A stretch of DNA of 64,000 nt from NCBI GenBank assembly GCA_965637545.1, contig OZ281496.1:10230001-10294000 (forward strand). Reading direction: 5' to 3'. Origin of the DNA: Phallusia mammillata (lineage: Eukaryota). The first letter of the stretch is position 1. Each line of letters begins with the position of its first letter. Shown here piece by piece: positions 6,762 to 59,613 of this stretch. Made by a program: the position numbers and the translations under genes. Under the pieces are notes generated by a model. It ran no database searches, was not told the origin of the DNA, and saw nothing but the letters and a program-made list of their open reading frames with translations.

Positions 6762-9700
6762 AACCTGAAAATCTTTCGGTGTGCGAGAAACCGTACCGTG
6801 GTCCCAGATGTACCTGCCCTTTTTCCATGTTCGAATGTGCTTGTCACAAGTTTGGGGTGTGGTGACAAACCAGGATGCATTGAGATGAAGAAGGTAAATA
6901 ACTGGGGCAACGACTGTGGGGATTATAGTGACGAATTCGGTGATTATTGTCCTTCCGGTTTTCAGTGCCACTGTTTCAACACTACTTGCAATGGTGTGGT
7001 TGGTTGTGTACATTATCCGTGCAATGGCTTGGTTGATTGCCCTGATGGGAGCGATGAAGTTAATTGCAGTTGCCCAGCTGATGGGTTTGAATGTGACTGT
7101 TTGAAAACAAACAACTTATCAGGCCAAGGTAAATGCTTAGGCGACTTTTGGCTTTGGGTGGAATGATTGGAGTGATGAAGTGAACTGCTCTTGCTCAGCT
7201 GAAACCTTCGAATGCTTGCTACAAAACCAGCAACTGCACAGTTGATAATGCTTGTCAAGACAAGCAAATGGTTTGCAATGGGCAAAATGATTGCGGAGAC
7301 TGGAGTGACGAAATTAACTGCAATTGCCCACCTCATACGTTTGAATGCCCTTGTTACAAATCAAAAAACTGCACATCAAGTGTTGGTTGCATTAGGATGG
7401 ACGGAAAATGTAATGGATGGAATAACTGCGGTGACTGGAGCGACGAAATTAATTGCACGTGCCCAGCTGACTACTTTGAATGTCCGTGTTACAAAACGAA
7501 CAACTGTACTACACTAAATGGCTGCATCAACAAAAACGAACGGTGTAATGGAAAGAATAATTGTGGAGATTGGAGTGATGAGGTTAACTGCACATGTCCT
7601 GTTCATCAGTTCCAATGCTCGTGTGTTGCTTCGAAACAATGCAATATTAGTTCGGAAGGAAGTTGTATTGACCGATCTGAGATTTGCAATGGAAATCGTG
7701 ACTGTTTTGACGACAGTGACGAGACACATTACGCATGTAACTGCTCTGGAGTTTATGCAAGATGTCCGTGTGATCCTGGTCGCAAACATTGCCCATCAAC
7801 AGGAAGATGCATACCGTTTAAATGGTTAGGTGACAACATTACTGATTGCTCTGATAAGAGTGACGAACTTTGTTTATTTTCCAACTTTACATGTCAGTCT
7901 TGTACAATGTTTGCCACAACTTGTGAGAGTGGACTACTCGCCAAGTATCTTGTGCATTCCACAGTTCCACCAGAGTGCTCTGCAGTAATTCAACCATTCT
8001 GTGCTGATGACAGCAACAAGTGCGAAACCGGAAAAGTAATTTGTGTCTCAACAACATGTGAAATGGCTCCACATTTTTGCTGGGATTTGTTTATTTGTGA
8101 AAATCGGCAAATCGTAACCATCGGTGACTTTTGTAATTCTGTAAGTAGTTGTAGTGACAACAGCGACGAAATTAAGAGAGGAATTGGATTTAAATGCTCT
8201 GGATCATCGAGACAAGGTGTTTGTGTTTTACCTCAAGCAAACATCTACGATTCGTTTGCTCAATGTTCTGACAAATCAGATCTTTGCTTTATAAACGGTC
8301 AGTTTAGGTGCTTTCAATGTTTGGACAAAAAACTTATTATATCACCCAAGCAAGTTTGTGATGGCATAGTAGATTGCTTTGATATGTCAGACGAATGTTT
8401 ATGTCCAGATCAAAGCCTGTGTGACGAAATAAAAAGTGCTTGCCAATTTAATCATACAGCAGGTGCCAATAGCACCTTCTGCTCAGACCACAAAAAATAC
8501 TACTTATACGAGAAAAACTCGGAACAGCCTCGTTGTTTAACAGATAACGCAAATTGCCACAAAGTTAGTCGTACAGGACGATGTACTGGAATAGTTCGTG
8601 ATGGTATGTGGTTACGTGGTGAAGTAGGTTGTCCAAATATGTTTGATTGCTTCGCAAAACAAGAAATCAACATACATTTAAATCAAGTGTGCGATGGAAA
8701 AGTCGATTGCGACGACGGCTCAGACGAATTTACAGAACGTTGTCATAGTTCCCGATTTTGCTGCAAAAACAAAGCTAAGATTTCCATTGACAGAAAGACT
8801 GTTTGTGACGGAATTATCGATTGTGACAATGAATCTGATGAAAGAAAATGCAGTTGTGAAAAAGTAAGGTTTTATTGCACAAATAAAGAACCTTTGTCAG
8901 TGGAATGGAGACTGGTTCAAAATGGAATTCAGGATTGTTCAGACGGAAGTGATGAACGTGTGAACTTGGCAAGGGACGCGTTTGCAGATGTAAATGAAAT
9001 GATTGCCAATCCAATATACCGAGTAATTTTCTGGATAACATCTGTGTTAGCCATGGGAGGAAATACGATTGTTTTTGTTGCAACTGCTCACAGCTTATGG
9101 AAAGCAGACTGAAAGCAAAACGTGTTTATCAACACCAGTGTTTATGTACTGAACCTTAGTCTCTCCGATTTCCTTATGGGCGTTTACCTAGCTGTTTGCA
9201 ATTATTTTACAAGCAACTCGATTTTCTGGCTCGTATTGTTTGCACGATAAAGAATGGAGATCAAGTAGTTTGTGTTCAGGACTTGGAGCCCTTGCAATTG
9301 TGTCCTCTGAAGCATCAGCATTTACTCTGACAGCAATGACCACGTTTCGCCTTGTATCTGCCTTTAAACCTTTCACTATTCGAAGTGTAGGTGTAAGTAA
9401 AATTGTAGTTGCTGAACTGGTTTCCTGGATTACATCTATTGCGTTTGCAACAGTACCGTTGCTTGAAGTCACTTCAGGATACTTTACAACTGATGTTTGG
9501 TTTCCCAACAACTTTTTTGGAACCGATTTTGTTTCCCGAGAAAACATGACACTTCTTGCGGAACGAATTGCTAAAGTCAAACCACAAAGTTGGTTCTCCG
9601 TTAAACAAACCATCTCCGAGGCATTTTCTCGTAATCCACCCAGGGGAGAGTTTGGATATTATGGGGAAACGAGTGTTTGCATGCCAGGTTTGTTTGCCAC

Positions 9701-10151
9701 AACCAATGAATTCGCTTGGGAATATTCAACACTTCTTATCACGATCAACTTCCTCATGTTCGTCTACATGGTGGTTGCGTATGTCCTCATCTACAAACAG
9801 AGCAACCGCATGAAAGGATCCAGAAGCACTGATGTGAGCACCAAGATGCAGAAGAGGATCTCCAGGTTGATTGTGACTGACTTCTGTTGCTGGATTCCAG
9901 TTTGTGTCATGGGATATTTAAGTGTTGGAGGAATCAAGATGCCACCAGATGCTTATGTGTTGAGCGCTTGTCTGTTACTTCCAATCAACAGCGCCCTTAA
10001 TCCCTTGCTCTACTCCAAAGTAATAGAAGATCAACTAATCAATGTGAAGAAATGGGTGGTTGGAAAATGTGCATTTGTAGGTCGCTCATCGGAATTGGCT
10101 GTGAGGTACAACCCCGATGCAGAAGATAGAGTGATTGAGATTGTTGAGTAG
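6762..10151 (+). pseudogene. LDLa-repeat rhodopsin-class GPCR (RXFP/LGR type C/GRL101-like), disrupted
   Basis: ~14 D-x-S-D-E LDLa motifs in ORFs 6798-7166 and 7268-9112. These run into TM1 (YRVIFWITSVLAMGGN), TM2 (LNLSLSDFLMGVYL), YC.HD.EWRSS.LC, GYYG..SVCMP, DFCCWIP and LPINSALNPLLY. Splice acceptor TTTTACGTTCAG before 6762. Frameshifts near 6855, 7120-7215 and 9195; in-frame TGA at 9110-9112. Confidence 0.88.
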
Positions 10152-18222: not shown

Positions 18223-18433
18223 TTTTAACTTTTTGCACCTAAAACAAACAGTTTAAAACTTTTGTATGAGACATAATATTAGTAATATCACAGACTTTAA
18301 AGTGAGCAACTCAACATACTCAGGATAAAACACTGCATTTGACAAACACAGTTAAGTAAAGTGAAAATCCATGACACAGTAAATATACACCAAAGAACTT
18401 GCAGAAAAAGTAAACTACCACCTTTGCACACCC

Positions 18434-20826
18434 TTATTTAACAACTTGGTAATGTAGTCTGACATAGGACTTTTCTTTGTACATATACATATCCAAACAA
18501 CAGTGTAACTCTGATCCTGGTTCAAAAAAAGGTGGTTTTCTGTGTCTGCTATTTCATAACAGTGCAAATGCGAGTTAAAAGAAAGGGTCTCCAAATGTAG
18601 TCCATGAATGACCAATTTTTCGTTCACTAAATAAATACCCTTCACCCTTGCAAAAAAAGGAATACCATCCACAACATCCAAAACAGAAATTCCATTTTCT
18701 GTATAAAAACGTCCGAGAAACTTGATTTTTTTCACTTTGCTGATTGAATTTTCCTGGCCTGATTGACCACTTTCATAATCTTCAAACTCACTTCTTATTA
18801 ACTGTTCGACAGAAACAGGCAACTCTTTGTCACAAACTTTTTCTTCCCCAATTATGTGTGGAATTTCACCTAAAACACGATTGGACTGTTCCCAACATTT
18901 TCGGTACTGAATACGCTCAGCTACAGTCTTGCAAATATTTTTAAAGTTTTTCGATTTTACTCCAATATTTTTTAGTTTGGTGTGGAATGATTCAAACCTC
19001 ATGCACCATATATGTGACAATGGACCAAAGTTAAGAATGTGGTTTGGATAATGAAGCATATAATGAAATTTGGGTTTAATGTAATCCTTTGCCACCGAAA
19101 CAAACAATTGATAAAATTCAGGTACAATGACTGCAAGATAATGTACTAATTCCTTTGTTACAACAGGAGCAAAAATTATATCCATGCATTCTGAGAGTGA
19201 AATATATAACTTCCAAAACACATCATCATCAGGAACTAAATCAGCAACATAAAATGAAAAAAGGCGAAAAAAACACCAACTTTCACTTGCATTAAGGTGA
19301 ATTTTTCCATTTGCATGAACTACATCTAGAGGTAGGCACCTTGGCTTGTTTGCCATATCAGACTTACCAAAAGCAAATCCACGAACTCTTTCATTAAAAC
19401 TGGAGTATGAAAGAATCCCACTTTGGTGAAAGTGCTTTAATATTGCCTGCAACAAAGCTGGAATAACCCCTTCCAAACAATCGTGCATGATGTCTGGAGG
19501 TATTGATGTTACAGGGCTAAAACCCATAACGGATTCTAGAGGGCAATTAGAAACAACACCATAAACTCCAGAAAGTGTGTTGTCAATCTGCACATCCCTT
19601 ACATGAATTTCATGGGCTGCAGATGTTCGCAAAGTGAAATTTTGTGGATGACACTTAACTTTTATATCTTCGTATGAGCACATACAAAATCTGCAAATTC
19701 TGCCACTACTGAAGCATTTTCTAAAGCCTCCAATGTCATGTGCACCTAAATTATCTGCAGAAAGGGTTGCAAGACTTCCAAAAAAAGTCTGACATTTACC
19801 ATTGATTTTACAGCTAATGCCTTGTCTCTCTAATATATTCAAATCTTTCAAAAGTGGTTGCAATACTTGTTTATAGCCAGTTTGATGTAACACATATGTT
19901 TTGACAACTAAGGTCAAAAATATGTGATGCAGTGAAGATGTGTACTTGCTGGAGATATTTCCCAAAAAGAAGTAAAAACAGGTAAGCTTATTCTTTTTGC
20001 GTGAGGTGCCCAATGGGTTGCACAGTTCCAATTCATCACAGTACAAGTGAATTCTGGCAAGGTTGCCTTGAAAGTACTCATAACTTTTAAAAAAATCTCC
20101 ACAACAAAAGCTAAAAATTAGATTTTTTTCACTATGCTTTCTTTCTGTTACTATGTTTTGGTAAATTTCTGGTTGCTGGATATACTGTCTCAAAGTATCC
20201 AAAATAGGAACGTACTGATAACTATGTGAACCCAATACAACTTCCAATGGGTTTATCAAACCAAAATTTGCAGTGAGGCATTTGTTAAGTTCAGTTTCAG
20301 ACTGTAACCTTCCCCACAAAGCAGCAGAAAAATTTCTATCCGCCAAGTATGTATGATCTACATTTAACTGTGATAAGTGTGACATCTGCAATATGGATTG
20401 GTGAAAACTGCTAAAATTGGCCGTAATTTCTGACATGATATGAGAAGCAGCAGATTTGGGAAGAACATGCCCTTCTCTGATATTTAGATACAATTTAATT
20501 ATGTTTCGCACAAAATCTCCCTCAGTTGGAATATAACATATGGGCAAATCTTCTTCAACACGAGCATTACTACCAGTTTCATCAAAAGCATCGCTGGTCT
20601 CAGATGAAAGGACTTCACTAGCAACTATATTGGCATGACTTCTCACTAAATGTTTTTCAAAACTTCTTATACTTGTGTAAATCTTACCACATCTATAAAC
20701 CTTACAAGTGAGAACTAACATCTGACTGGATCTTGCGTGATCATTTCTCATGTGAGCAAGAAGATATTTGCGATGATTAAGGTGCACACAGTTAGCAAAT
20801 GGACATTGAAACTTTGGATTCTCCAT
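18434..20826 (-). CDS. EnSpm/CACTA transposase with N-terminal C2H2-like fingers and a 1-nt frameshift near the C-terminus
   Basis: 803-aa ORF with HLYCDELE...YFFLGN, ADNLGAH..GGF..CF.SGRICRFC, PPDIMHDCLEGV, KPKFHYMLHYP and WCMRFE. Adding one base to the 7-A run at 18524-18530 restores ...LFFEPGSELHCCLDMYMYKEKSYVRLHYQVVK* with the stop at 18434. Confidence 0.9.
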
Positions 20827-32335: not shown

Positions 32336-32491
32336 ATTACTTCTTTTTCAAATATCTCATCCATGCATCTATGAGCTTTTTAATGTTGTGAAAAATGTTG
32401 AATCAAACTGTCTTTCCAAATGGGCACTTCTGCGAGAGGTTTTTCTCTGTAACACTCGACCGCAGCAAAATGTTTTTTTTTTCACAAAACA

Positions 32492-33109
32492 TCACATCGA
32501 TGAGAGGTCACATTTTTTATGAGTCAACACGTGTCTTTTCAATGTTCCACTTTGGGTAAATCTTTTCTCACAAATATCACACCGATGTCGTTTCTCATTA
32601 GTGTGAATCAACATGTGTATTTTCAAACACTTACCTCGGCTAAATCTTTTTTCACATACATTACATTGAGCAGGTTCTTTATTTTTGTGAGCCCACATGT
32701 GTTTGTTCAAATTCTCCAACTGGGCAAATCGTTTTTCACAAACATAACATCGATGAGGTTTTTCATCAGTGTGTGTCAACATATGTCTTTTCAAACTTCC
32801 ATTTTGGGCAAAGCTTCTGTTACAAACAACGCATTGATAAGGTTTATCTTTGGTGTGAGTCAACATGTGTCTGTTTAATGTAGCAACTTGACGAAATTGT
32901 TTTTCACAAAGGTCACATCTATAAGGTTTCTCATTAGTGTGAATCAACACGTGATTTCCTAAAGCTCCTGTCCGTTTGAAGCTTTTTCCACAAGCATCAC
33001 ACCGATAGGGCTTTTGATTGGTGTGAATCAACATATGTCTGTTCAAAGTTCCAATTTGAGTAAAAGTTTTTTCACAAACATCACATCGATGGGTTTTCTT
33101 GTTTGTCAT
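32492..33109 (-). CDS. C2H2 zinc-finger protein, 7 tandem fingers, no KRAB/effector domain
   Basis: 7 x C-x2-C-x12-H-x3-H with TNEKP-type linkers. Splice acceptor TTTTTTCCCAG at ~33160 upstream. A degenerate 8th finger follows the stop. Confidence 0.85.
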   Translation of the reverse strand: MTNKKTHRCDVCEKTFTQIGTLNRHMLIHTNQKPYRCDACGKSFKRTGALGNHVLIHTNEKPYRCDLCEKQFRQVATLNRHMLTHTKDKPYQCVVCNRSFAQNGSLKRHMLTHTDEKPHRCYVCEKRFAQLENLNKHMWAHKNKEPAQCNVCEKRFSRGKCLKIHMLIHTNEKRHRCDICEKRFTQSGTLKRHVLTHKKCDLSSM

Positions 33110-35312: not shown

Positions 35313-36155
35313 TTAACGGCATTTCTTAGCAGTATGAGTCGACATGTGTCTTTTCAAATGTTCATTTCGCCGAAAGCGTTTATCACAGACAACACAATGA
35401 AAACGTTTCTCATTGGTGTGAGTCAACATGTGTTTGTTTAAATACTCTAACTGGGCAAATCTTTTTTCACAAACATTACATCGATGAGACTTTGCATCAG
35501 TGTGTTTCAACATGTGTCTTTTCCATTTTTCACAAACTTTACATCTTTTAGGTTTATCATTAGTGTGAATCAACATGTGCCTTTGTAAATGTTTTCTTAG
35601 AGCAAGTCTCTTTTTACAAACATCACATCGATAAGGTTTTTAATTAGTATGAATCAACAAGTGTCGCTTCAAAGATGATGTCCATTTAAATCTTTTTTCA
35701 CAAACATTACACCGATGGCGTTTCCTATTAGTGTGAGTCAACATGTGTGTTTTCAAGTCTCCGGTTCGAGCAAATCTTTTTTCACAAACATCACATCGAT
35801 GAGGTTTATGTTTGGTGTGAGTTAACATGTGTATTTTCAAGTCTCCTCTTCCAGCAAATCTTTTTTCACAAATATCACATCGATGAGGTTTTTGATTAGT
35901 ATGAATCAATAGGTGTCGTTTTAAAGATGCTGCCCACTTGAATCTTTTCTCGCAAACATCACACCAAAAGGGTTTCTCATTAGTGTGGAGCAACATGTGT
36001 CTTTTCAAATGTTCAAACCGAGTGAATCTTTTTTCACAAACATCACACCGATGGCGTTTCCCGTTAGTGTGAATCAACATGTGTCTTTGCAAAGTTCCAC
36101 TTCGGCTTAAACTTTTTTCACAAACATCACATCGATGGAGTTTCTTATTTGCCAT
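35313..36155 (-). pseudogene. C2H2 zinc-finger gene with premature stop
   Basis: The 171-aa ORF (6 fingers) and ORF 35313-35576 are in the same frame. They are separated by a TAA at 35640-35642 in the linker TN*KP. One downstream finger is internally deleted. Confidence 0.82.
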
Positions 36156-36247
36156 ATTGCTTTACTGTTTTAAACACGGAGCAGCCTGCGAAACGGATCG
36201 AAACGAAAATCTTGGAAAATAAAAAGGATTTTTTTATTACCTTACAA

Positions 36248-39879: not shown

Positions 39880-40450
39880 GATCAAACACCACTGACACAT
39901 TGGCGACTTATACGCTGAATTTTGGTCAATCTGAGTTTGATAATTACAGAGTGGTACATCATGTTGGTTTTTAATGATCCAATTCGGTCAAAGGTTCTTT
40001 CACAAACATTACATCTATGAGGTTTCTCATTGTTGTGAATCAACATGTGCTCTGAAATTACGTCTTTTCTCACAAACATCACATCACTCGCCTTTTTCAC
40101 CAGTGTAAGTCAACGTGTTTCTTTTCAAATTTCGCGAAAGCGTTTACCACAACACAGTAATACGATTTTTCATTGGTGTGGATCAATATGTGCTAAATAA
40201 ACCTACCACTGCAGCGAAATGATTTTTCACAAAACATCAGGTCTCATTAGTGTGAATCAACATGTGTCGTTTTAATGCTCCAATTTGAGTAAATCGTTTT
40301 TAACACATTTCACACCGATGTGGTTTTTCATTCGTGTAAATCAACGTGTGTGTTTTTAAATTTCCACTAATGCGAAATCTGTTTTCGCATACGTTACACT
40401 GATGAGGTTTTCAATTTGTGTGAATCAACATGTGTGTTTTTAAATACCCA
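39880..40450 (-). pseudogene. Degenerate C2H2 zinc-finger array
   Basis: Repeated HMLIH.NEKPHRC.VCE fragments with stops and frameshifts. Confidence 0.78.
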
Positions 40451-41671
40451 AGTTGGGCAAATTTCAAACATGTGCATGTGTTTGAAAAACGAAAATTCGC
40501 TTCGTATGACACTTTTTTGTTTCGAAACAAAATTCAAAACGAAATTTTTGATGCTCTTGAGCGAAAAAATGTAGTTGAGTTTTACAAATTAAAGTTCGTT
40601 AATTACATTTCATCGAGCGTTGATTATTATATGTGTTTGGTTTGTTGGTTATTTTTTTAATCTGTTCAAAGGTGGCAGTCAATTTTGCGTCTTAAGTAGA
40701 AGGCAGTACGACATGTCAAATCAGTTTTCATAAATTCCACAATCAGCAACAATTCAGCAACATTCTGTCTGATCTATTTAACTAAAATGTGTTTTAATGT
40801 TTTTCAAGCTACAGTAAAGTGTTGTAAAATTGATGTTAGTTTGCACAGGAGAGTATTATTATCAAATAATAGCATAGATTTAACAAATCACAAAACTTTT
40901 AACAGCTTGTTCTTATCAATTAACTAAATATTGCGGAATAAAAATTGCACGCAAATTATTAGCGTCAAATTCGAATTTATGTGATGAAAATTTTTTATCC
41001 TTCATTTCAACCAAACGACTTATATGTGTTAAACATTTTAATTCCATTTTTTTTATCTTTTCCAGCTGTCATTGTTAAAGGTTTATGTAATGGATGGTGT
41101 TAAATTATTTACGTGCATTGTGATGTTTTAATAGCTCTGAAGCAAAATCAATAAAATAGTTAAATCCCTACAAAACATACGTTGTCTGGTAATGGGTTCA
41201 TTACTGGCAGGGATAGTTAGACTGTGTGGATACGTTTTCGTTTACAGAAGGTTTTACATAAAACACCATACATGTTGTTGCATTTAACATTTTTGTGCAG
41301 TGTCCAACACGGTGTGTTAGAAAGTTAGTGAAAGTGAAACATTTATAAGCGTTGCAGACGATTGTAAAAAAATAATGTAGTTCGATAATTGGCAAATGGT
41401 AAAGTTACTTAAAAATTTGAATTACTAAGTTGGTTACTTCAGTGAAAAGATCAGTTTGCTTGATACAATTGTAATCTATGAACCGTATATGGAAACGATA
41501 AAACGTGTTGATTAGATCTAATTAACATTAAAAAAAGTTGAAACAAAGTCGTTTACAACACGTTCGTTACTCTTCCTAAAATCCTTTCATCTTGTATTTG
41601 GTAGGTTTTGTTTTAATAAATCATATTTATTAACGTTCGTTCATTACCCCGGTAAAATTTGCAATTTCCAA

Positions 41672-42562
41672 ATGGAGACGACTACACCAGAAATTGTGAT
41701 CAGAAATTATTGGTTGGATGTGATTGAACCAGTTGCAATTTCAGTACTTATCTGCATCATTTTTTATCTTGCAATCTCATCATCCGTGTATTTGGCTGCA
41801 AAGCAAGAAAATGAACTGAAAACAGTTAACAGATGTTGCTGTGTTGCTTCTTATATTTTAATCTTATCTCTACTTCCACCTCTGCTCAATATCACAGTCA
41901 AAAAATATTTAAGCGGTGTGTGCACATTCAGCTTAAGTGTGCTAGTTATTGCAAACGTGGGCAACCGTTTCTCGGTATATCTTATTCTGTGGCTACGACA
42001 ACATGCTTTGTACAGATCAGTAACTTCATCTACTAAATGGAACAGGGTGGCAAAGTATGCAAACAAGTTTGTTTTGCTCCTTTTCGCTGTTGCATCTTCA
42101 CTTTCTATATTGCTCTTATTATCAACTGGAACAAAATATGAAAGGCGTTACGGTTGCTCCTTTGAGAAACTTGGTTCGTTGGTCGCCTTTATCTACGGCG
42201 GTTACATCTTATCTCACATTCTCTTGCTTTTTCTCATCTTACTTCCGCTCTCAACTTACTACAGAAACCTCTCAGGCATCGAAGATGTGAGCAAGCGATT
42301 AATTGCAAGCACTGTAGCATGTGTAGTAACAGATATCATGTTCACTGTTCTTCTACTCTTGTTGCATCCTTATGTACGGACATCTCCCTATCTTTCACCA
42401 CCAATAATCGGTTGCATTCACGTCTTGGATCAGGTCGCTCTGAATGTTACTTTGATCCTCTCATTTCCCAACTACAAGCAAAGATTATTTTCCTTCCCTC
42501 TGGTGCTGGAAAACAGACGAAATCGCGTTATTCCAATAGTCTCTCTTCCATACATGGGATAA
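41672..42562 (+). CDS. Intronless orphan 7TM (GPCR-like) protein, 296 aa
   Basis: Uninterrupted ATG-to-stop ORF with about seven hydrophobic segments. Cys at the top of TM3 (GVCTF) and in ECL2 (YGCSF). YLILWLRQ sits where DRY would be. Confidence 0.75.
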   Translation: METTTPEIVIRNYWLDVIEPVAISVLICIIFYLAISSSVYLAAKQENELKTVNRCCCVASYILILSLLPPLLNITVKKYLSGVCTFSLSVLVIANVGNRFSVYLILWLRQHALYRSVTSSTKWNRVAKYANKFVLLLFAVASSLSILLLLSTGTKYERRYGCSFEKLGSLVAFIYGGYILSHILLLFLILLPLSTYYRNLSGIEDVSKRLIASTVACVVTDIMFTVLLLLLHPYVRTSPYLSPPIIGCIHVLDQVALNVTLILSFPNYKQRLFSFPLVLENRRNRVIPIVSLPYMG

Positions 42563-47540: not shown

Positions 47541-50500
47541 TTAACGTAAGTGAGGTAAGCCCGTGTCTGCGCTGTCTCGTTGCTGTTCATTAGACCAAGT
47601 TTTACACGGTAGAATTTCCTGTCTGGTGACGCGGTTCATGACGCAGTACAGATGGAAGACGACGATTCCCTGCGATCCGTTCACCAGGCTGTTGATGTAC
47701 ATGAACACCTCGTTCGAAATGTCGTACCCTATTCCTGCAAAAATGCACAAAGTTAAAAAATATTAAATGTTGTGATTGGATTAAGTTGGGGAAAGATATC
47801 TACATGGGTGATACACAGGCTTCCTGTAACTGGGCAAAAGAATATTGGAAGATTGTTCAACGTTTGTAAATCCTACTAAATGATGCAAAAAGGGGCATAT
47901 TGCAAAGCAATATTTCGTGAAATGGCATTGAGTAAAAAAACTTTGGTTCCATTGTGATTCATTTTCTACATAGCTTATGGACAGTTGTGACATCCAACAG
48001 ATTTTGTGAGGCACTACGCAAGCCTACGATGCAAGGGTTATGTCACCATATGTACTGATGAAATAAGAGCTTGCAGTTCAAGAGTGTGCACTGAATGAAG
48101 CTTAACGATTGGGTATAAATATGTATTCTTTGCTTTGTATGCAACACACCTGTGAAGAATACCAAACTCCAAGTGCCTCCAAGCATTACGAGCAGAAGAA
48201 AGAATGACTTTGCTGCTCTCAGCGCATTCTCTACTTCTGCATTTTCGTCTTTGTTGTGCAAACTTCGTGTGTTGCTCATCACGTGAGTGGTCTTCACGAT
48301 GATCATGGTATTCATGAAGAGTATGAGAGCAAGAGGAGCGAAGACCGAAGCGTAGAAGATCGGAGTACCGGGAGCTAACCAGCATCTGTCATACTTAGGA
48401 ATGGATGAAGTTTGGTTTTCAAATTCGTTACACTGCTCAAAGAACGGTTGGGGTTGCATGTAACTGTCACTGGAAAACCCAACACCCGCAGCAACACCCA
48501 CTATAAGAGCTGGAACGACCCAACCTACTACCATAAAGACCTTAACACGGTTTTGCGGATCTTGTGCCTCGAACGCATATGGAAAGGAGGTGGCCATCAC
48601 TAGACGAACTCCTTCGATGAGGAACCACATTCCTGTAAAGGAAACCAAGATTATGACTACGATTTAAACTTTTTTTTGTTTAAAGCCTGCATGCTTACCA
48701 ACACATAGCAAGAGGTAATGCACGGTCACCGTGAAAATCATGCATGAGATTTCATGTGAAACCGCGAGGTCATGTGACATGTTGGTTGCGTGAAGCAGCA
48801 GAAAAGCCAAAGACAAGCTGATTTGAACCGGATTCCTATCGTCGTGTCGCTGATGTATGCAGAGTATGACTATGGTGGCAATGAGAAATGCTATAGATGC
48901 TGCCTCTGTTGTGTAAGATATGATCTGAAAATACCAAGTCAAATTAAATGCAATTATTTACTAAAGCCGTATATTTATCTACCTTAACCCATTCAGGTAT
49001 TGTGATGGTTTCCACAGCCAGAAGCACAGTAAAAATAGTGAGGTGATTGCATTTGCAAATGACGTCACCTGATACGTCATCAATGCTTGTGACGCAACCC
49101 ACGTCAGAGTACTTCTTCGATAACCGTTCGACGAAAAGACAGATAGGTGCTAGTTTTCTAATCATCAGGTTTGTCGAATTTTCTTTTTCTTTTTTAATCT
49201 GCTTACAGACTGATTCAGACGACGCTGGGGTTACGACAAGGTTTGCGTTTCCTTGCAGTTGATCGTTACCTGCTGTGTCATTGGATGAACGCAGGAAGCT
49301 ATCGGCGTCCCAGCCATTAATGACAATAAAGGTTGTGTTTTCTGCAGCTATGTACCGGGTTACAGCGAGAGAACTCGGGGTTATACGTTGGGTCTCTGTT
49401 GTTTTAGTTTGGTTTATCTTATAGACAAACACAGTAGTAACAATTCGACTAACGTTGTTTGTTTCTAGTTGGAATTCAATGTGAGACGAACGAAGCTCAA
49501 GAATAGAGTTGTAGTTGTATCTTTCCTCTGTAATTTCTGAAACTACGATATGCAGTTGAGTTTCCCCGAAGTCGTAGGTGGTTCCGTTGGTATCAATGTG
49601 ATTCTGCGAAACTTTCTCGATTTGGTTTTCAAGATTTTTAAATCCATCTGCTTCGTCAGGTATGAGATGTCGCACCGTTTCCAAAAACATCTCGTCTGTG
49701 AAATAATGTGTTTATAATAGAATAGACGTAAATGAAAACCTTCAATGCGCTCATAAAACGTCTTTAAATATGAGTGATAACAAAGCAGTGAACACTATTT
49801 TCTACTATTGTGTGATGTGATCCTGTAACAGACAACCATGTTGAAGCGCCCTACTTTCTTGTTGCTCTTAAAATGTGATTTTGAAAACGGCCAACTCACG
49901 TTTCGGAATTGAGCAGTTTAAATCAATGTCGATGTATTTATCTACTTTACTGCACGGATCTTCAACATTGAGTGATGCTGGTATAGAACAGTGAGGTTTG
50001 TTTTGACACAAATTCATAATCATGGCCACACCCTCCGATCCATTGCAGTCGGTACTTTCCTTCGCAGATCCATGACAAACCCTGAAATAAGTAATGAAAT
50101 TGCCTAGTTTCGCTTCATTTGTTTCAAAAATAGTAAACGTACGACAACAAAGGTATGGGCTACTTTCTCTTTTTGTTGGGCATTCAATAAAATTAGTTTA
50201 ATGAAAAGGTGATGAAAAGGAAATAACCTAATATCAGCAGTTATGGTGTTTCCGCACTCAAATCAAATCTACAAACATATAAATAGAAAAAATACTACAC
50301 AAAGTACTGTTGCTTAAAATTAAACGTGGCATCGAATGTTGAAACATGGCATCGAATGCATTAACTGATTGTTTGCATTAAAAAAATGGTTTAGTTACAT
50401 AAAAATACATCAAATATAAGTTATTCCTTCACACTTACTTTGAGTATGGTTGAAGTCGTCCATAAAGTGCTGAAATTATTTGAATCTTTTTCCCAGCAGG

Positions 50501-53753: not shown

Positions 53754-54005
53754 TTAAGGCAAAGATGAATAGCTGGGATCAGCCCTGAAGCGTCGATGCA
53801 GACTAGTCGTGGGTTCAAATTCTACCGCAAGCCAGACTTTTCTAGCCTACGCCTTGCCATACGGTAGTGAATGCCAGCTGACCGGCTGATTCGGTTCAAC
53901 GCCTTCAATAGGTCTGGCGTACTATGATTTCTGTATGAGTGTGCCGTGATTGCTGGTCTGAATCAACGCTTCAGAGCTGATCCCAGCTATTTATCTATGT
54001 CTCAA
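53754..54005. repeat. 53-bp imperfect inverted repeat enclosing the 3' half of a T1 tRNA-like repeat
   Basis: Left arm TTAAGGCAAAGATGAATAGCTGGGATCAGCCCTGAAGCGTCGATGCAGACTAG. Right arm reverse complement TTGAGACATAGATAAATAGCTGGGATCAGCTCTGAAGCGTTGATTCAGACCAG. Confidence 0.8.
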
Positions 54006-54105
54006 CTGATTACTGGTCGATCTGGCGATCCCCTAAGCTGACATGTGTAGCATACGAGGCAGGTAACGGCGCTTGTGATTCAACTGTCGGCGGATTCTCC
54101 AATGA

Positions 54106-54172
54106 GCCCGTGTAGCTCATTTGGCAGAGCGCGAGTCCCGGTAAGACTACTGTTCGAATCCCACCGCAGGCT
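54106..54172 (+). pseudogene. tRNA-like sequence with GGT loop, internally deleted (family T1)
   Basis: GCCCGTG TA GCTC ATTTGGCA GAGC GC GAGTC CCGGTAA GACTA ..GTTCGAAT CCCAC CGCAGGC. Flanks are homologous to those of the 25847-25920 copy. Confidence 0.6.
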
Positions 54173-55124
54173 GGATTTTTCTAGCCTACGTCTTGCCATA
54201 TGGTTGTGAATGCATGGTGACCGGTTGATTCGGTTTAACGCCTTCAATGATCTGACGTATTATGATTTCAGATACTAAATATTTTTCTTTTCATGATTGT
54301 TTTCGGTAACAACTGTACAACGGATTAAAAAGTCTTTCGTAACAATCACCAAAGCAATGCCCTTTTTAGTTTCTAGTTTTATGGGAGCTAGCTAATCTGG
54401 CCATGCGTCGAATTGCTTCCTGTAGTACGAGAACGTGGAAAAGTTGTAAGTCGCAGCTGCACAACCGAATAATGTCTAAGTTATGGATGTTTGTAGTCCA
54501 GTTAAGGTTTGCAGTAGCGAGGGAAAGCTAGTGTGTACATAAGTTAGATTTGGAAGGACGTATTCGTTTGTCTGTCACGCTAACAACACACCGTCAAATC
54601 ATTTTACCAGTGGTCGGTTGTGTTGTGTTAAATTTGGCTATTATGGGCGTTACGTATTTGCAGTTTGAAACAAACAAGCTACGAGGAAGTATTACCTGGT
54701 TCGAGTTTCCACAAAGTGGACTGAGTGCTCGGAAACACCGATATATAGCATTTATTGCCCATAACGATTGTTTTGACTAGAAGGATGACTTTAGTTTACT
54801 TTTACTACCAGCTAAATCGCTTTAACAGTTGCGTGTATTTAGTTTTAATTTATTGCACTTCGGATGTAATCTTGAGGGATTGAAAAGTTTAAGACCCATT
54901 TCCCTTAAGCGCAATGACCAGGGCCACTATGCCCAGTTTGTACCAATATAAATGAAAAGAAATCGTTGCACAGCTGACAGGCATATTGCGAAGCCAGTTA
55001 ATTTCGGTTAGTTTAAATCCATACAAGAGTATTAGGATTGCAAATAGTCAAACTCATGATTTCATTAGAAAGTATTACAAAACCTAAAGTTGTAACTTTA
55101 ATATTCTATTCACGTAGCATTCTT

Positions 55125-55522
55125 GTTGTTTCATTGTGTTGTTTGTGTAAAAATATTTGCAATAAGTGGACATTTAAAAACCCACACGTTGACACACACC
55201 AATGAGAAACCTCATCGATGTGATGTTTGTGAAAAAATGACACACAACAAAAAAAACATGTCAGTGTGTTGTTTGTGAAAAACGCTTCAGCGAAAGAGGA
55301 CATTTGAAAAGACACATGTTCACACACACCAAAGAAAAGCCTCATTCATGTGATTATTATGACAAAGGATTTGCTCAACGTGAACATTTAAAAAGACACA
55401 TGGCGACACACACCAAAGAAAAACCTCATCGACGTAATGTTTGTAAAAAACGATTTCGTCAAGTTGGGGCTTTAATAAGACACATGGCGACACACACCAA
55501 AGGAAAACCTCATCGATGTGAT
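55125..55522 (+). pseudogene. Degenerate C2H2 zinc-finger array truncated by the Maverick insertion
   Basis: FHCVVC..., HTNEKPHRCDVCEK, HTKEKPH... with frameshifts and lost Cys. The last finger breaks at CAT CGA TGT GAT|AGTAGTAG. Confidence 0.82.
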
Positions 55523-55725
55523 AGTAGTAGTGGGTCAAGTGGCCGCGGTGCGGCGTCTTTTTTGAGGCGGAATCAATGTGTTTTTGAGAAGAGGAGGCGG
55601 TAGCTTTTTTTGGGGGGTGTATAGAGGAGGTGGGTCTTTACACACGTACAAACACCCCCTCCTCATGTACTTTCCCTATGTTTTTAAGTAGGCGTAGCCT
55701 TCCTCTCAACGGTCGGGTGTTGGGG

Positions 55726-55731
55726 TATAAA
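55726..55731 (+). promoter_or_regulatory. TATA box upstream of the Maverick plus-strand gene block
   Basis: GGGGTATAAA ~40 nt before the ATPase start. A mirror TATAAAAA lies on the minus strand at 62667-62674 before the ORFan. Confidence 0.45.
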
Positions 55732-55771
55732 TTTCATTGAATGGGGTTGCTTTGTTTCATTTTTCTTGACT

Positions 55772-56368
55772 ATGGAATTTCTTCATCCATTTACTTGCGT
55801 TGTGGCCGGTCCAACCAGTTGCGGTAAAACGTATTTTGTTGCTCGTTTGATAAAGGAAAAGCAAGTCTCTCCCCCACCCGATCGAGTTGTTTGGTGTTAT
55901 GGAGAGTGGCAAGCAGCGTATGAGGGTATAAGTGGTGTGGATTTTGTAAAGGGCTTGGCCACGGATTTGAATCCCGACGAACGAACGCTGCTGGTCATTG
56001 ATGATTTGATGAGCGAGTGTGACAAAAGTGTAACAAACCTATTTACCAAGGGAAGTCACCACAAAAATGTCAGTGTCATCTACATTGTCCAAAACCTTTT
56101 TGATAAAGGCAAAGAGCACCGCACAATAAGCTTGAACGCTCATTACTTGGTGGTATTTAAAAATCCGAGAGACTCTTCGCAAATCATTCACCTGGCAAAG
56201 CAAGTGTATCCCGGGCGCTCGCGTGTTGTGCAAGAAGCATATAGTGACGCTACATCCAAGCCACACGGTTATTTGTTACTTGACTTCAAGCAGTCAACCC
56301 CGGATAAGTTTCGGCTGCGGAGCAACGTCTTTCGCGGTGAGACACCGTTTATCTACTTCCCCAAGTGA
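55772..56368 (+). CDS. Genome-packaging ATPase (A32/FtsK-HerA family)
   Basis: Walker A GPTSCGKT, Walker B LLVIDDLM, SHH..VSVIYIVQN, ISLNAHYLVVFKNPRD, PHGYLLLD. Confidence 0.92.
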   Translation: MEFLHPFTCVVAGPTSCGKTYFVARLIKEKQVSPPPDRVVWCYGEWQAAYEGISGVDFVKGLATDLNPDERTLLVIDDLMSECDKSVTNLFTKGSHHKNVSVIYIVQNLFDKGKEHRTISLNAHYLVVFKNPRDSSQIIHLAKQVYPGRSRVVQEAYSDATSKPHGYLLLDFKQSTPDKFRLRSNVFRGETPFIYFPK

Positions 56369-56370
56369 AA

Positions 56371-56712
56371 ATGTCCAAACGCCTCCGCAGACAAGCTTCT
56401 TTGCTGACAACTCTCTGCACCGCTAAGCCTAGACTTGTGCGGACGATTATAAAAGGAGCGGACCACGACTTAATAAATTCCATTTGTGAATGCTGTCACA
56501 ATGTTTTAAAGGGGAACGTAAACCTCTCTCCGAGTGAGCGTGGAAAACTTAAGCGTTACAAAAACGGTCTTCGGGAACTTGGAAAGAAGTCTACCAGTCT
56601 AAAGAGAAAACGCAAAATAATTCAACGTGGTGGATTTTTGTCTGCGTTATTGGGGCCTTTGATCGGGACTGTGATTCCGGCAATTGCTGGACTGTTCACT
56701 GGAGGAAAGTGA
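56371..56712 (+). CDS. Small basic Polinton protein, putative core protein with hydrophobic C-terminal peptide
   Basis: DLINSICECCHNVLKGNV and a K/R-rich stretch, then QRGG|FLSALLGPLIGTVIPAIAGLF. Confidence 0.8.
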   Translation: MSKRLRRQASLLTTLCTAKPRLVRTIIKGADHDLINSICECCHNVLKGNVNLSPSERGKLKRYKNGLRELGKKSTSLKRKRKIIQRGGFLSALLGPLIGTVIPAIAGLFTGGK

Positions 56713-56743
56713 AAATAAAATAAAAAACACATAACAAATTTCA

Positions 56744-57400
56744 ATGGAAAACGTTCAAAAACTCGCTTTGGTTGATCCACGAGTATTAAAATCCCTTCAA
56801 CAAAAAACTCCTACCCAATCCACGCCTATTGAAAATGCAATGAGTGATTTGGATAAAGTAATGAACGGAATAGTGAAAGAACCAGGGGATTTGGAAAGCA
56901 AAGTGAAGTTGTACAACCAAGCTCTGCAACGATACCGCTTTTACAACAGCGAACTTATCAACAAACCAATGGAAATTTCTATTGTCGAAAAGGAAAAACC
57001 CGGCAGTGAAGAATCAAATCTGGAGGAAAAGCGAAAACAGGAGATAGTTGCCCACATCATCGCCTCTACGCCCAAGACATTCAAACGGAAAGCCGAGCGT
57101 GTAATGGGATTGATACGAGATAATCCTAATATCGACTTTCAAGCGACTGGCCAGCTAGTATTGAAAGGTCAAACGATCGAAAATAGCAACATTGAAGACT
57201 TGGTGCACGATATTATACGCAAGAGAAAAAAGACGGGCGGCCCCATCGGGTGGGATCAGTTTATGTTGGCTTTGACAGAAGCCAATGCTCCTAAGACATT
57301 GGTCGGTGATAAAAGGGAGGGACAGGGCATCTTCCAGGTGCCAGTCGCTTCACCTCGCAAACGTAGCACACGTCTTGCAAAACGATGGGTCGCTCTGTAG
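56744..57400 (+). CDS. Conserved Polinton protein of unknown function, 218 aa
   Basis: KLYNQALQRYRFY and PIGWDQFMLALTEANAP..LVG motifs. Position between ATPase/core genes and the integrase. Confidence 0.75.
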   Translation: MENVQKLALVDPRVLKSLQQKTPTQSTPIENAMSDLDKVMNGIVKEPGDLESKVKLYNQALQRYRFYNSELINKPMEISIVEKEKPGSEESNLEEKRKQEIVAHIIASTPKTFKRKAERVMGLIRDNPNIDFQATGQLVLKGQTIENSNIEDLVHDIIRKRKKTGGPIGWDQFMLALTEANAPKTLVGDKREGQGIFQVPVASPRKRSTRLAKRWVAL

Positions 57401-58446
57401 ACTTTGCGGGGGCATACTTTACTCCGTCCAGTGTAGGAAGCCTTGGTGGTGTAGATCGACTTCGGCGGGCAACTCATTGCAAGCAGTCAACAGCGCGGGA
57501 ATGGTTGCAAAAACAGGACACCTACACCCTCCATAAACCCATTCGAAAAAACTTTCTACGTTCTCGGGTTGTGGTCGGTGGGATCGACAGCCAGTGGCAG
57601 GCCGATTTGGTCGAAGTTATTAAACTGAGTCGATTTAATCGTGGTTTTAAGTATCTGCTTACCGTCATTGATGTATTTTCAAAATTCGCTTGGGTTGTAC
57701 CAATAAAAAACAAAACCGGAAAAAGCCTTGTTCAGGCCTTCGAACGTATACTCTCAGAAAGTGGGCGCTGCCCGCAAAAACTTCAAACAGACCGTGGAAA
57801 AGAATTTGTAAACACACTCTTTCAAAAATGTTTGTCCAAACATCACATACAGTTTTTTACAACTTTTAACGATGAAACGAAGGCGTCTATTGTGGAGCGG
57901 TTTAATCGAACTTTAAAGGAGCGAATTTGGCGATATCTTACTAAAACATCGGGGTCGTCGTACATTGACATTCTCGATGATGTTGTGGCCAGTTACAATA
58001 AGAGCTACCACCGCAGCATAGGAACTTCCCCAGCGTCTGTAACACAACTGAATCAAGAAGAAATTTGGCAAAGATTGTACGGTGACCTCCTCCCCCCGCA
58101 GGTGTGTAAGTTTACCGTAGGTGCGCCAGTTCGAATTGTCACCACCAGAACCAAATTCCAAAAGAGCTATCTCCCAAAATGGTCAGGCGAAGTGTTTTAC
58201 GTGAAATCGCGAAGGTGCGGTTCGATTCCGACCTATACTTTGAGAGACTACAATGGTGAATCGATCAAGGGCACCTTCTATGAAGCAGAGATGCAGCTAG
58301 TTCAGAAATGCACCTATCAAATCGAAAAGGTGTTAAAAAGGCGAAAAAGGCGGGGTGTTAGCCAAGTGCTTATAAAGTGGTTAAATTATTCAGATGAGTT
58401 TAATTCGTGGATCAATGCAGGCGACATCGTCGCACACACCGGCTGA
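57385..58446 (+). CDS. Retroviral-like DDE integrase with C-terminal chromodomain
   Basis: WQADLVE, KYLLTVIDVFSKFAW, LQTDRGKEF, KASIVERFNRTLK. C-terminus YQIEKVLKRR...VLIKWLNYSDEFNSWI. Confidence 0.95.
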   Translation: MGRSVDFAGAYFTPSSVGSLGGVDRLRRATHCKQSTAREWLQKQDTYTLHKPIRKNFLRSRVVVGGIDSQWQADLVEVIKLSRFNRGFKYLLTVIDVFSKFAWVVPIKNKTGKSLVQAFERILSESGRCPQKLQTDRGKEFVNTLFQKCLSKHHIQFFTTFNDETKASIVERFNRTLKERIWRYLTKTSGSSYIDILDDVVASYNKSYHRSIGTSPASVTQLNQEEIWQRLYGDLLPPQVCKFTVGAPVRIVTTRTKFQKSYLPKWSGEVFYVKSRRCGSIPTYTLRDYNGESIKGTFYEAEMQLVQKCTYQIEKVLKRRKRRGVSQVLIKWLNYSDEFNSWINAGDIVAHTG

Positions 58447-58723
58447 TCAACCGGAGAGAAACGACTGGACTTGTTGTGGAAAGTTGTTGCCTCGTGCCGA
58501 GGTTGTTTTTCTGTCCCAGGTTTTTGTTATTCTCATCGTCGTGATCACCAGTCTTGTCAACTTGACAATAGGTCACCCGAATCCCAATCTCTGGACCGCC
58601 TTGCTTGCCAGTGGAGTTGGATACCTTTTGCCCGCTCCTCGCCTAAGACGCGAGCGACATGTTTTATATCACCCTGCCGAGCAAAAGCAGTGCTCGTTTT
58701 TTTCCAGAAAACACGGTCACTAA
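58415..58723 (+). CDS. Small two-TM membrane protein overlapping the integrase and penton genes
   Basis: MQATSS...EVVFLSQVFVILIVVITSLVNLTIG..NPNLWTALLASGVGYLLPAP. Confidence 0.65.
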   Translation: MQATSSHTPADQPERNDWTCCGKLLPRAEVVFLSQVFVILIVVITSLVNLTIGHPNPNLWTALLASGVGYLLPAPRLRRERHVLYHPAEQKQCSFFSRKHGH

Positions 58724-59612
58724 TTACGTTACGCAGCTTCCCCAACTCATTACATTGGATCCGGGTCAGTGGGAAGTAGCTCTCACTGACTTCCACTTTC
58801 CCACAACATGGAAAAACGTTCAGCCAGGAGAGGGTTGGTGCAGAGTAACTAGGAATGGAGTTGAAAAAACCGTAACTTTGCCGAGCGGGTATTACGAGTC
58901 GGGGGAACATGTTGTGGACCCCCTAAACGACCTTCTCAGCAAAGAAACATGGATTCCTCCAAACATACCAACAAATACTCTTGGGGTAGTGGAGGCCCCG
59001 GTAAACAGTCCGAATGTGGCTACTATGCAGGAAGCTATACGCTCTAATCGAGTAAGAGCAAGTAGGGGGAAAAGGTCAAGGAGTCCACTCCCTCAAGGAA
59101 CTAAACCTCTCCGAAGCAAAGCGTGGAAATTGAAGGAGATGACGGGAGGTAGTCAAAAGACAACGCCTAATGAGTTAAAAGCTTTCACCTTTGATCGGCT
59201 TACGCAACAGACCACGATCAGTCTCGACAAACGAGAGGAGATGGTCATTTCTGAGCGTTTGGGACGGGTTTTGGGGTTTGATCAGACACTGTTTGCTCCT
59301 GGATTTCACTTCAGTACAGGCGTGTGTGATGTAAATGACGGCTTTACGGCATTATACGTTTATACGGACATTATTCATCCAAGGGTTGTCGGAGATGTTT
59401 TAGTGCCTCTCTTGGACACGATTCCAACACCAAGCCGAAAGGGTAAAACACACTCTAAACGCTTTTCCCATCCCTCATATCATCCCGTCCGTCTGCGTTC
59501 CTTTGCTACAATAGAAATTGATATAAAGGATGATGTGGGGCGCTCTGTACCATTTGAGAGTGGACGCGTGATAGTGACACTTCACTTTCGCAAGCGACCT
59601 TTTCAAGTCTAA
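58659..59612 (+). CDS. Minor capsid protein (penton, single jelly-roll) with internal basic insertion
   Basis: MFYITLPS..S..FFPENT..NY...LP..I.L..G.WEVAL; LPSGYYES; LYVYTDII....VGD..VPLL; Y.PV....F.TIEIDIKDD.G..VPFE.G.VIVTLHFRK. Confidence 0.88.
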   Translation: MFYITLPSKSSARFFPENTVTNYVTQLPQLITLDPGQWEVALTDFHFPTTWKNVQPGEGWCRVTRNGVEKTVTLPSGYYESGEHVVDPLNDLLSKETWIPPNIPTNTLGVVEAPVNSPNVATMQEAIRSNRVRASRGKRSRSPLPQGTKPLRSKAWKLKEMTGGSQKTTPNELKAFTFDRLTQQTTISLDKREEMVISERLGRVLGFDQTLFAPGFHFSTGVCDVNDGFTALYVYTDIIHPRVVGDVLVPLLDTIPTPSRKGKTHSKRFSHPSYHPVRLRSFATIEIDIKDDVGRSVPFESGRVIVTLHFRKRPFQV

Positions 59613-59613
59613 A

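Follow-up and report, generated by a model that had tools for sequence, protein, structure and literature searches.

A Maverick/Polinton of 16,536 bp interrupts a C2H2 zinc-finger (ZNF) array of Phallusia mammillata in the middle of a finger, and a 6-bp target-site duplication (TSD), TGTGAT, flanks it on both sides. The window, the 64,000-nucleotide stretch of chromosome C3 that was analysed, holds the left junction; the 3′ terminus of the element lies at G000:C3:10302058, 8,058 bases past the window end. Positions 55508-55522, the host finger just left of the element, read CCT CAT CGA TGT GAT (P-H-R-C-D), and the first base of the Maverick is 55523, where AGTAGTAGTGGG begins. At the right junction the element ends in ...CCCACTACT, followed directly by TGTGAT GTTTGTGAAAAAAGATCT; beyond the duplicated hexamer the host sequence is GTTTGTGAAAAA, and the ZNF array picks up again in frame (CDVCEKRSTRSDNLKTHMFTH...) for about five further units. 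The insertion cut the finger at its first Cys-Asp and the TSD doubled this pair, so that a full finger stands 3′ of the right end. The chance expectation of a 6-bp TSD match is ∼4 × 10−4, and what comes after the match is, moreover, ZNF sequence as predicted. Features of the host array and of the termini are as follows.

55135..55522, + strand: 5′ part of the host C2H2 array, broken (Pfam zf-H2C2_2 and zf-C2H2; TRF period 84)
55186..55188, + strand: ACG, probable lost start codon (ATG in all 3 paralogues that match it in upstream context)
55231..55264, + strand: finger 2, shortened (∼36 bp missing of the 84-bp unit), with the reading frame switching in an A8 run (from the frames)
55313..55522, + strand: 210-bp repeat with a second copy 3′ of the Maverick (97.1% identity)
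55517..55522, + strand: left TSD copy, TGTGAT (junction reading)
55523..55525, + strand: extra AGT, absent at the family's other four termini
55526..55573, + strand: left terminal inverted repeat (TIR), 48 bp, a perfect match to the right end
G000:C3:10302011-10302058, beyond the window: right TIR, inverted partner of the left TIR
G000:C3:10302059-10302064, beyond the window: right TSD copy, TGTGAT, after the right TIR; ∼5 finger units come next

The insertion is a textbook one, and a sharp prediction made from sequence alone was confirmed. The earlier note had placed a Maverick in mid-finger with TGTGAT as its TSD, and had foretold that the far end, beyond the window, would show TGTGAT and then resumed ZNF sequence. 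Both junctions agree with this; only the count of terminal triplets does not, as the right end is (ACT)2, shorter than the predicted repeat. An assembly artefact at the left junction is ruled out by short-read contigs that bridge it, one from X1 (record 4; 55477-55554, no differences) and one from X2 (record 11; 55473-55554, one difference), both from a single study that may be the source of the assembly itself. A 6-bp duplication at both ends is standard for a Maverick, and PMC8097293 gives (AGT)2 ends with 6-bp TSDs as the norm.

A search with the left end of the element returned five family termini in the assembly. Four carry (AGT)2, whereas the left end described here carries (AGT)3, a count unmatched among the 16 termini of eight other Mavericks and also present in the contigs of X1 and X2. 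A longer TSD that would take in the extra AGT is refuted by the intact downstream duplicate, which has the pre-insertion CGA TGTGAT GTT. An additional three-base jump-back during protein-primed replication may have added the triplet. Adenovirus replication starts by such a jump on a similar repeat, according to PMC5175343, and this analogy makes an extra jump plausible. Slippage at a later stage or an untrimmed end would also be compatible with the data.

The element is an ordinary new member of the known Maverick/Polinton class. Its identity, as claimed in the earlier note, is borne out by a DNA polymerase of type B (polB), an rve integrase, TIRs with AGT/ACT ends, the 6-bp TSD, a packaging ATPase and a protease; the viral reading frames are open, as had also been stated, since the ten long frames that were checked lack internal stops. 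The following frames lie in the window.

55688..56368, + strand: packaging ATPase frame, Walker A GPTSCGKT (Pfam Adeno_IVa2, E 9e-5)
56341-56712 and 56735-57400, + strand: two open frames without Pfam match (ORF list)
57367..58446, + strand: rve integrase (PF00665, E 9.5e-16) with a C-terminal chromodomain (Chromo, E 8.6e-8)
58647-59612, + strand: open frame without Pfam match, likely minor capsid protein by its position in the usual Maverick layout
59578-60048, + strand: open frame without Pfam match (ORF list)
60036..61355, + strand: likely major capsid protein (from homologues)
61343..61801, + strand: adenovirus-type cysteine protease (Pfam Peptidase_C5, E 1.2e-5)
62015..62677, − strand: open frame without Pfam match (ORF list)
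63026..64000, − strand: C-terminal part of polB, in a 1347-aa frame that continues past the window

The likely major capsid protein has 2172 homologues at E ≤ 1e-20, of which the closest (77%) is an F54H12.2-like protein of Phallusia mammillata; the two named homologues are both F54H12.2-like. It has no direct Pfam match and a PDB search gave none either, and one of 120 homologues among the matches listed carries PF21738, which we take to be a double jelly-roll capsid-like family. The polB frame has a weak DNA_pol_B_2 match (E 0.006) and a DTDS motif. An NCBIfam search with nine proteins gave none above the cut-off. In its (AGT)2//(ACT)2 ends, 6-bp TSD, TIRs and 16.5-kb length, the element resembles the animal Mavericks/Polintons (adintoviruses) described in PMC8097293 and PMC8502044; the same holds for its gene set, in which polB and an rve integrase bearing a chromodomain are joined by an ATPase, a cysteine protease and a likely capsid gene. 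It differs in that one terminus has (AGT)3 and in a 258-bp internal array whose length varies between copies (6.9 versus 8.9 units), and its 48-bp TIR is among the shortest in the vertebrate range given in those sources, 46-1,447 bp. The tandem arrays, 141 bp ×3 and 258 bp ×6.9, lie in the interior beyond the window (L006:4550-6853); the 8.9 units of the copy on C7 largely account for that copy's extra 496 bp. About 5 kb at the right-hand end of the Maverick has no frame above 110 aa.

The host array was likely already a pseudogene at insertion. The 210-bp repeat is part of a 252-bp, three-finger internal duplication. Its two copies differ at 6 of 210 positions (2.9%) and are thus ∼40-fold more diverged than the Maverick copies, so the host duplication, at 97.1% identity, is far older than the spread of the near-identical elements. 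The same two Cys are absent from both duplicate copies (CDYY at 55349, RRNVC at 55430); these losses are therefore older than the duplication. In addition, the family appears to start at an ATG matching 55186, and this start was probably lost in the host gene. The frame switch in finger 2 falls in an A8 homopolymer and may be an assembly error; the contig comparison lists no indel there. The Cys losses common to the older duplicate, the frameshift and the probable loss of the ATG support the earlier note's claim that the target was already decaying. The opposite order of events, in which a functional ZNF gene was first disrupted by the insertion and then acquired its lesions, is very unlikely. 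Degenerate fingers are found in working ZNF genes too. Loss of Cys by itself may leave a gene working, a single open frame is retained by 21 of the 35 arrays sampled, and the deletion and the frameshift may be younger than the insertion; against this, the Cys losses are common to a duplicate ∼40-fold more diverged than the Maverick copies. Likewise, the probable start loss is within a contig of X5 (54507-55217, with one difference from the window, most likely at 54538), and X5 has no junction contig. Further to the left, 53770-54300 is a very-high-copy short repeat, probably a SINE or MITE, with a contig depth several hundred times that of unique flank.

The interrupted array belongs to a large family on C3. 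Between ∼1.4 and 17.7 Mb this chromosome has several hundred apparently finger-only C2H2 arrays, reminiscent of zebrafish 4q, and further arrays lie in the window on the − strand (32477-33096, 35316-36161 and 40244-40445). A 28-bp motif of the target context has 177 exact copies in the assembly, with 97 of 100 among the matches listed on C3; a rarer variant is on C3 in 21 of 22 cases, spanning 1.7 to 17.7 Mb. The general linker pattern has 941 matches in the 240-Mb assembly. Calibration on 78 fingers from 25 matches gives ∼2,900 fingers, or ∼0.10% of the assembly, which at eight fingers each would be roughly 350 arrays. Among 35 sampled arrays, mostly picked near motif matches and so non-random, 21 read through in one open frame and 14, the host array among them, are interrupted by a frameshift or stop. 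The sampled arrays appear finger-only in the frames read, where an ATG stands shortly 5′ of the first finger and nothing suggests an N-terminal domain; 34 samples of 10 kb taken on the other chromosomes contained no finger. Tandem ZNF genes that number in the hundreds on a single chromosome are also described for the FiNZ-ZNFs of zebrafish chromosome 4q (PMC10547256) and for mouse KZFP clusters (PMC11952569), as are transposon fragments multiplied by segmental duplication in zebrafish 4q and young mouse KZFP clusters; the arrays described here differ from both in appearing finger-only in the frames read. Several hundred finger-only genes, many of them broken, may interest the field of ZNF-transposon coevolution more than the insertion does.

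To place the insertion among its relatives, we traced all 12 integrase matches in the assembly at E ≤ 2.5e-36 to their element ends. One of the 12 Mavericks, the C3 copy, is in a ZNF array, and the other eleven are outside. The ten elements with both ends have ten different 6-bp TSDs. The family of the C3 element comprises three copies: the C3 copy inside the 84-bp ZNF array; the C7 copy (TSD AAACCT), which borders a 195-bp array whose TRF call stops 143 bp from the junction; and the C79 copy, cut by the contig start and adjoining a 175-bp satellite. For eight further elements both ends are known, each pair with a 6-bp TSD; none of these sites is at a ZNF or tandem array, and a ninth element, of which a single end is seen twice, is in plain DNA. 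Tandem-array sites thus number 3 of 3 for this family versus 0 of 9 for the other Mavericks. All eight integrases scanned have a chromodomain match, four of them below the Pfam cut-off, so the chromodomain does not single out the family and is ruled out as a family-specific trait.

Several side observations belong to this survey. A relative on C2 (L056; ∼15784690 and 15791900) with 73% integrase identity has one of its termini in two copies, which are in direct orientation and have the same flank, as in a local duplication; the opposite end could not be located. The 175-bp satellite (a 350-bp dimer; C79, C48 and C6 at 12.41 Mb) has 266 exact 26-mer matches, among the matches listed mostly on an unplaced contig, and is possibly centromeric. 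Ten degraded polB relics lie at 11.5-18.3 Mb of C3, partly duplicated with their flanks, and one has a context common to relics on C2 and C5. Flanks are common to the relics L039, L041 and L042 and to L044 and L045, leaving perhaps five independent units. That old Maverick relics are over-represented around the ZNF genes was considered and rejected, as all ten 10-kb loci lack fingers and the common flanks mark duplicates, as in the mouse KZFP clusters of PMC11952569.

We think it probable that the Maverick landed by ordinary integration without ZNF preference and then survived at a harmless site. As expected from its class, the rve integrase would have made a 6-bp staggered cut in the finger, whose repair would have doubled the Cys-Asp codons; the insertion may have been kept because it had no cost, having struck a dead copy in a family of some hundreds. 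Under uniform insertion, at least one ZNF match among 12 has a probability of ∼1.2% with arrays at ∼0.10% of the assembly; the argument from chance leans on the post hoc choice of the case and on presumed purifying selection. That the Maverick specifically targets ZNF genes or the TGTGAT linker motif is scarcely credible. Such targeting would account for a match in a sequence class of only ∼0.1% of the assembly, and the 28-bp target context offers 177 exact copies; yet both sister copies are outside ZNF arrays (the C7 TSD is AAACCT), as are all 11 other Mavericks, and with one of three family copies and one of 12 Mavericks in arrays and ten different TSDs among ten, it is largely refuted. The ZNF enrichment implied by the earlier note, which had proposed a genome-wide insertion map, is accordingly not supported by the 12 Mavericks traced.

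For its companion idea, enrichment in heterochromatin, here widened to tandem DNA, the evidence is mixed: it agrees with the three family copies and disagrees with the nine other elements and with a non-tandem family site in X3. Gao et al. 2008 is reportedly a study on chromoviruses (Ty3/gypsy elements with a chromodomain integrase). The family integrase might likewise have been steered to silent chromatin by its chromodomain, the ZNF match being a by-product, and we regard this as rather unlikely. The family chromodomain is above the Pfam cut-off, and the placement of all three copies within or next to tandem arrays has P = 0.0025 at a 13.6% background. PMC8502044 mentions a predicted chromodomain with a possible part in site choice, raised there only by analogy with LTR retrotransposons, PMC8909793 describes chromovirus targeting, and PMC10547256 reports H3K9me3 on KZNF and FZNF clusters. 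Several points weigh on the other side: 7 of 7 scanned integrases of the nine other elements also match a chromodomain, with none of the nine at a tandem array; over all 12 Mavericks the probability of at least three in tandem DNA is 0.22; the X3 site is non-tandem and the C7 copy is an edge case; and survival in gene-poor, harmless DNA predicts the same pattern. The background (period at least 50, at least 200 bp) is 5.5% in 34 samples outside C3, 26% in 22 samples from satellite-rich C3 and 13.6% over all 56, a sampling that over-represents C3 and leaves out unplaced satellite-rich contigs. Including the X3 site, 3 of 4 versus 0 of 8 gives a post hoc Fisher p = 0.018. All targeting tests are post hoc, with tandem content as a proxy for heterochromatin, and the tandem sites of the family are a weak hint of a heterochromatin preference. 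Like chromoviruses, as covered in PMC8909793, the element has a C-terminal chromodomain on its rve integrase; heterochromatin targeting is reported there for some chromoviruses, whereas the three copies here offer no more than a hint of it. It is a doubtful proposal that a currently spreading Maverick family homes to silent chromatin by its chromodomain and that the zebrafish-4q-like ZNF cluster of C3 is such chromatin; if true, it would be population evidence for a Polinton chromodomain guiding site choice. A literature search by title, covering few subscription journals and no supplements, returned nothing on Mavericks that target either ZNF genes or satellites, and the part of PMC6431247 available holds nothing on Maverick targeting.

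Returning to ordinary integration at a harmless site, the Maverick likely arrived in the array recently. The C7 and C79 sister copies are 99.8–99.9% identical to the C3 element over the part of the window compared, with 6 substitutions in 7,896 and 4 in 8,477 positions, respectively (0.05–0.08%). The insertion is probably polymorphic among individuals and a segregating marker. X3, a run of a different sample and study, has contigs with two alleles of the host array, that of the left copy and that of the downstream copy; they exit the window at 55522 into ZNF-type sequence, depth is zero at 55524-55530, and no X3 contig crosses the left junction. This suggests an empty site in the X3 individual. 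The empty-site allele that the earlier note proposed to look for is thus partly supported: X3 has the left-copy host allele and no junction contig, but contigs demonstrate presence and cannot prove absence. X5 has no cover at 55440-55488 and was left out of the empty-site count. Family termini in X3 and X5 have flanks other than the host ZNF array. The X3 flank matches C1 at two places, which are duplicates of each other and non-tandem; the assembly has no insertion at either, and the one scanned over 10 kb has no finger. The flank of X5 has no match in the assembly at one mismatch. Over 55537-55801 the X3 and X5 individuals have a diverged variant of the family, with a different terminal segment and at other sites; the X3 variant has 15 differences in 258 bases. 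Should the tandem-repeat hint hold, the insertion would matter more: the part of the chromodomain in site choice could be tested by resequencing alone, in a young family whose sites differ between individuals.

Elsewhere in the window, two open frames have no Pfam or NCBIfam match (18415-20826, − strand, 803 aa; 41522-42562, + strand, 346 aa). There are also two long-exon GPCR genes, one at 7184-10151 (+ strand), in which a rhodopsin-type 7TM frame comes after eight LDL-A repeats, and one at 48043-49711 (− strand) with a GPS and a secretin-type 7TM.
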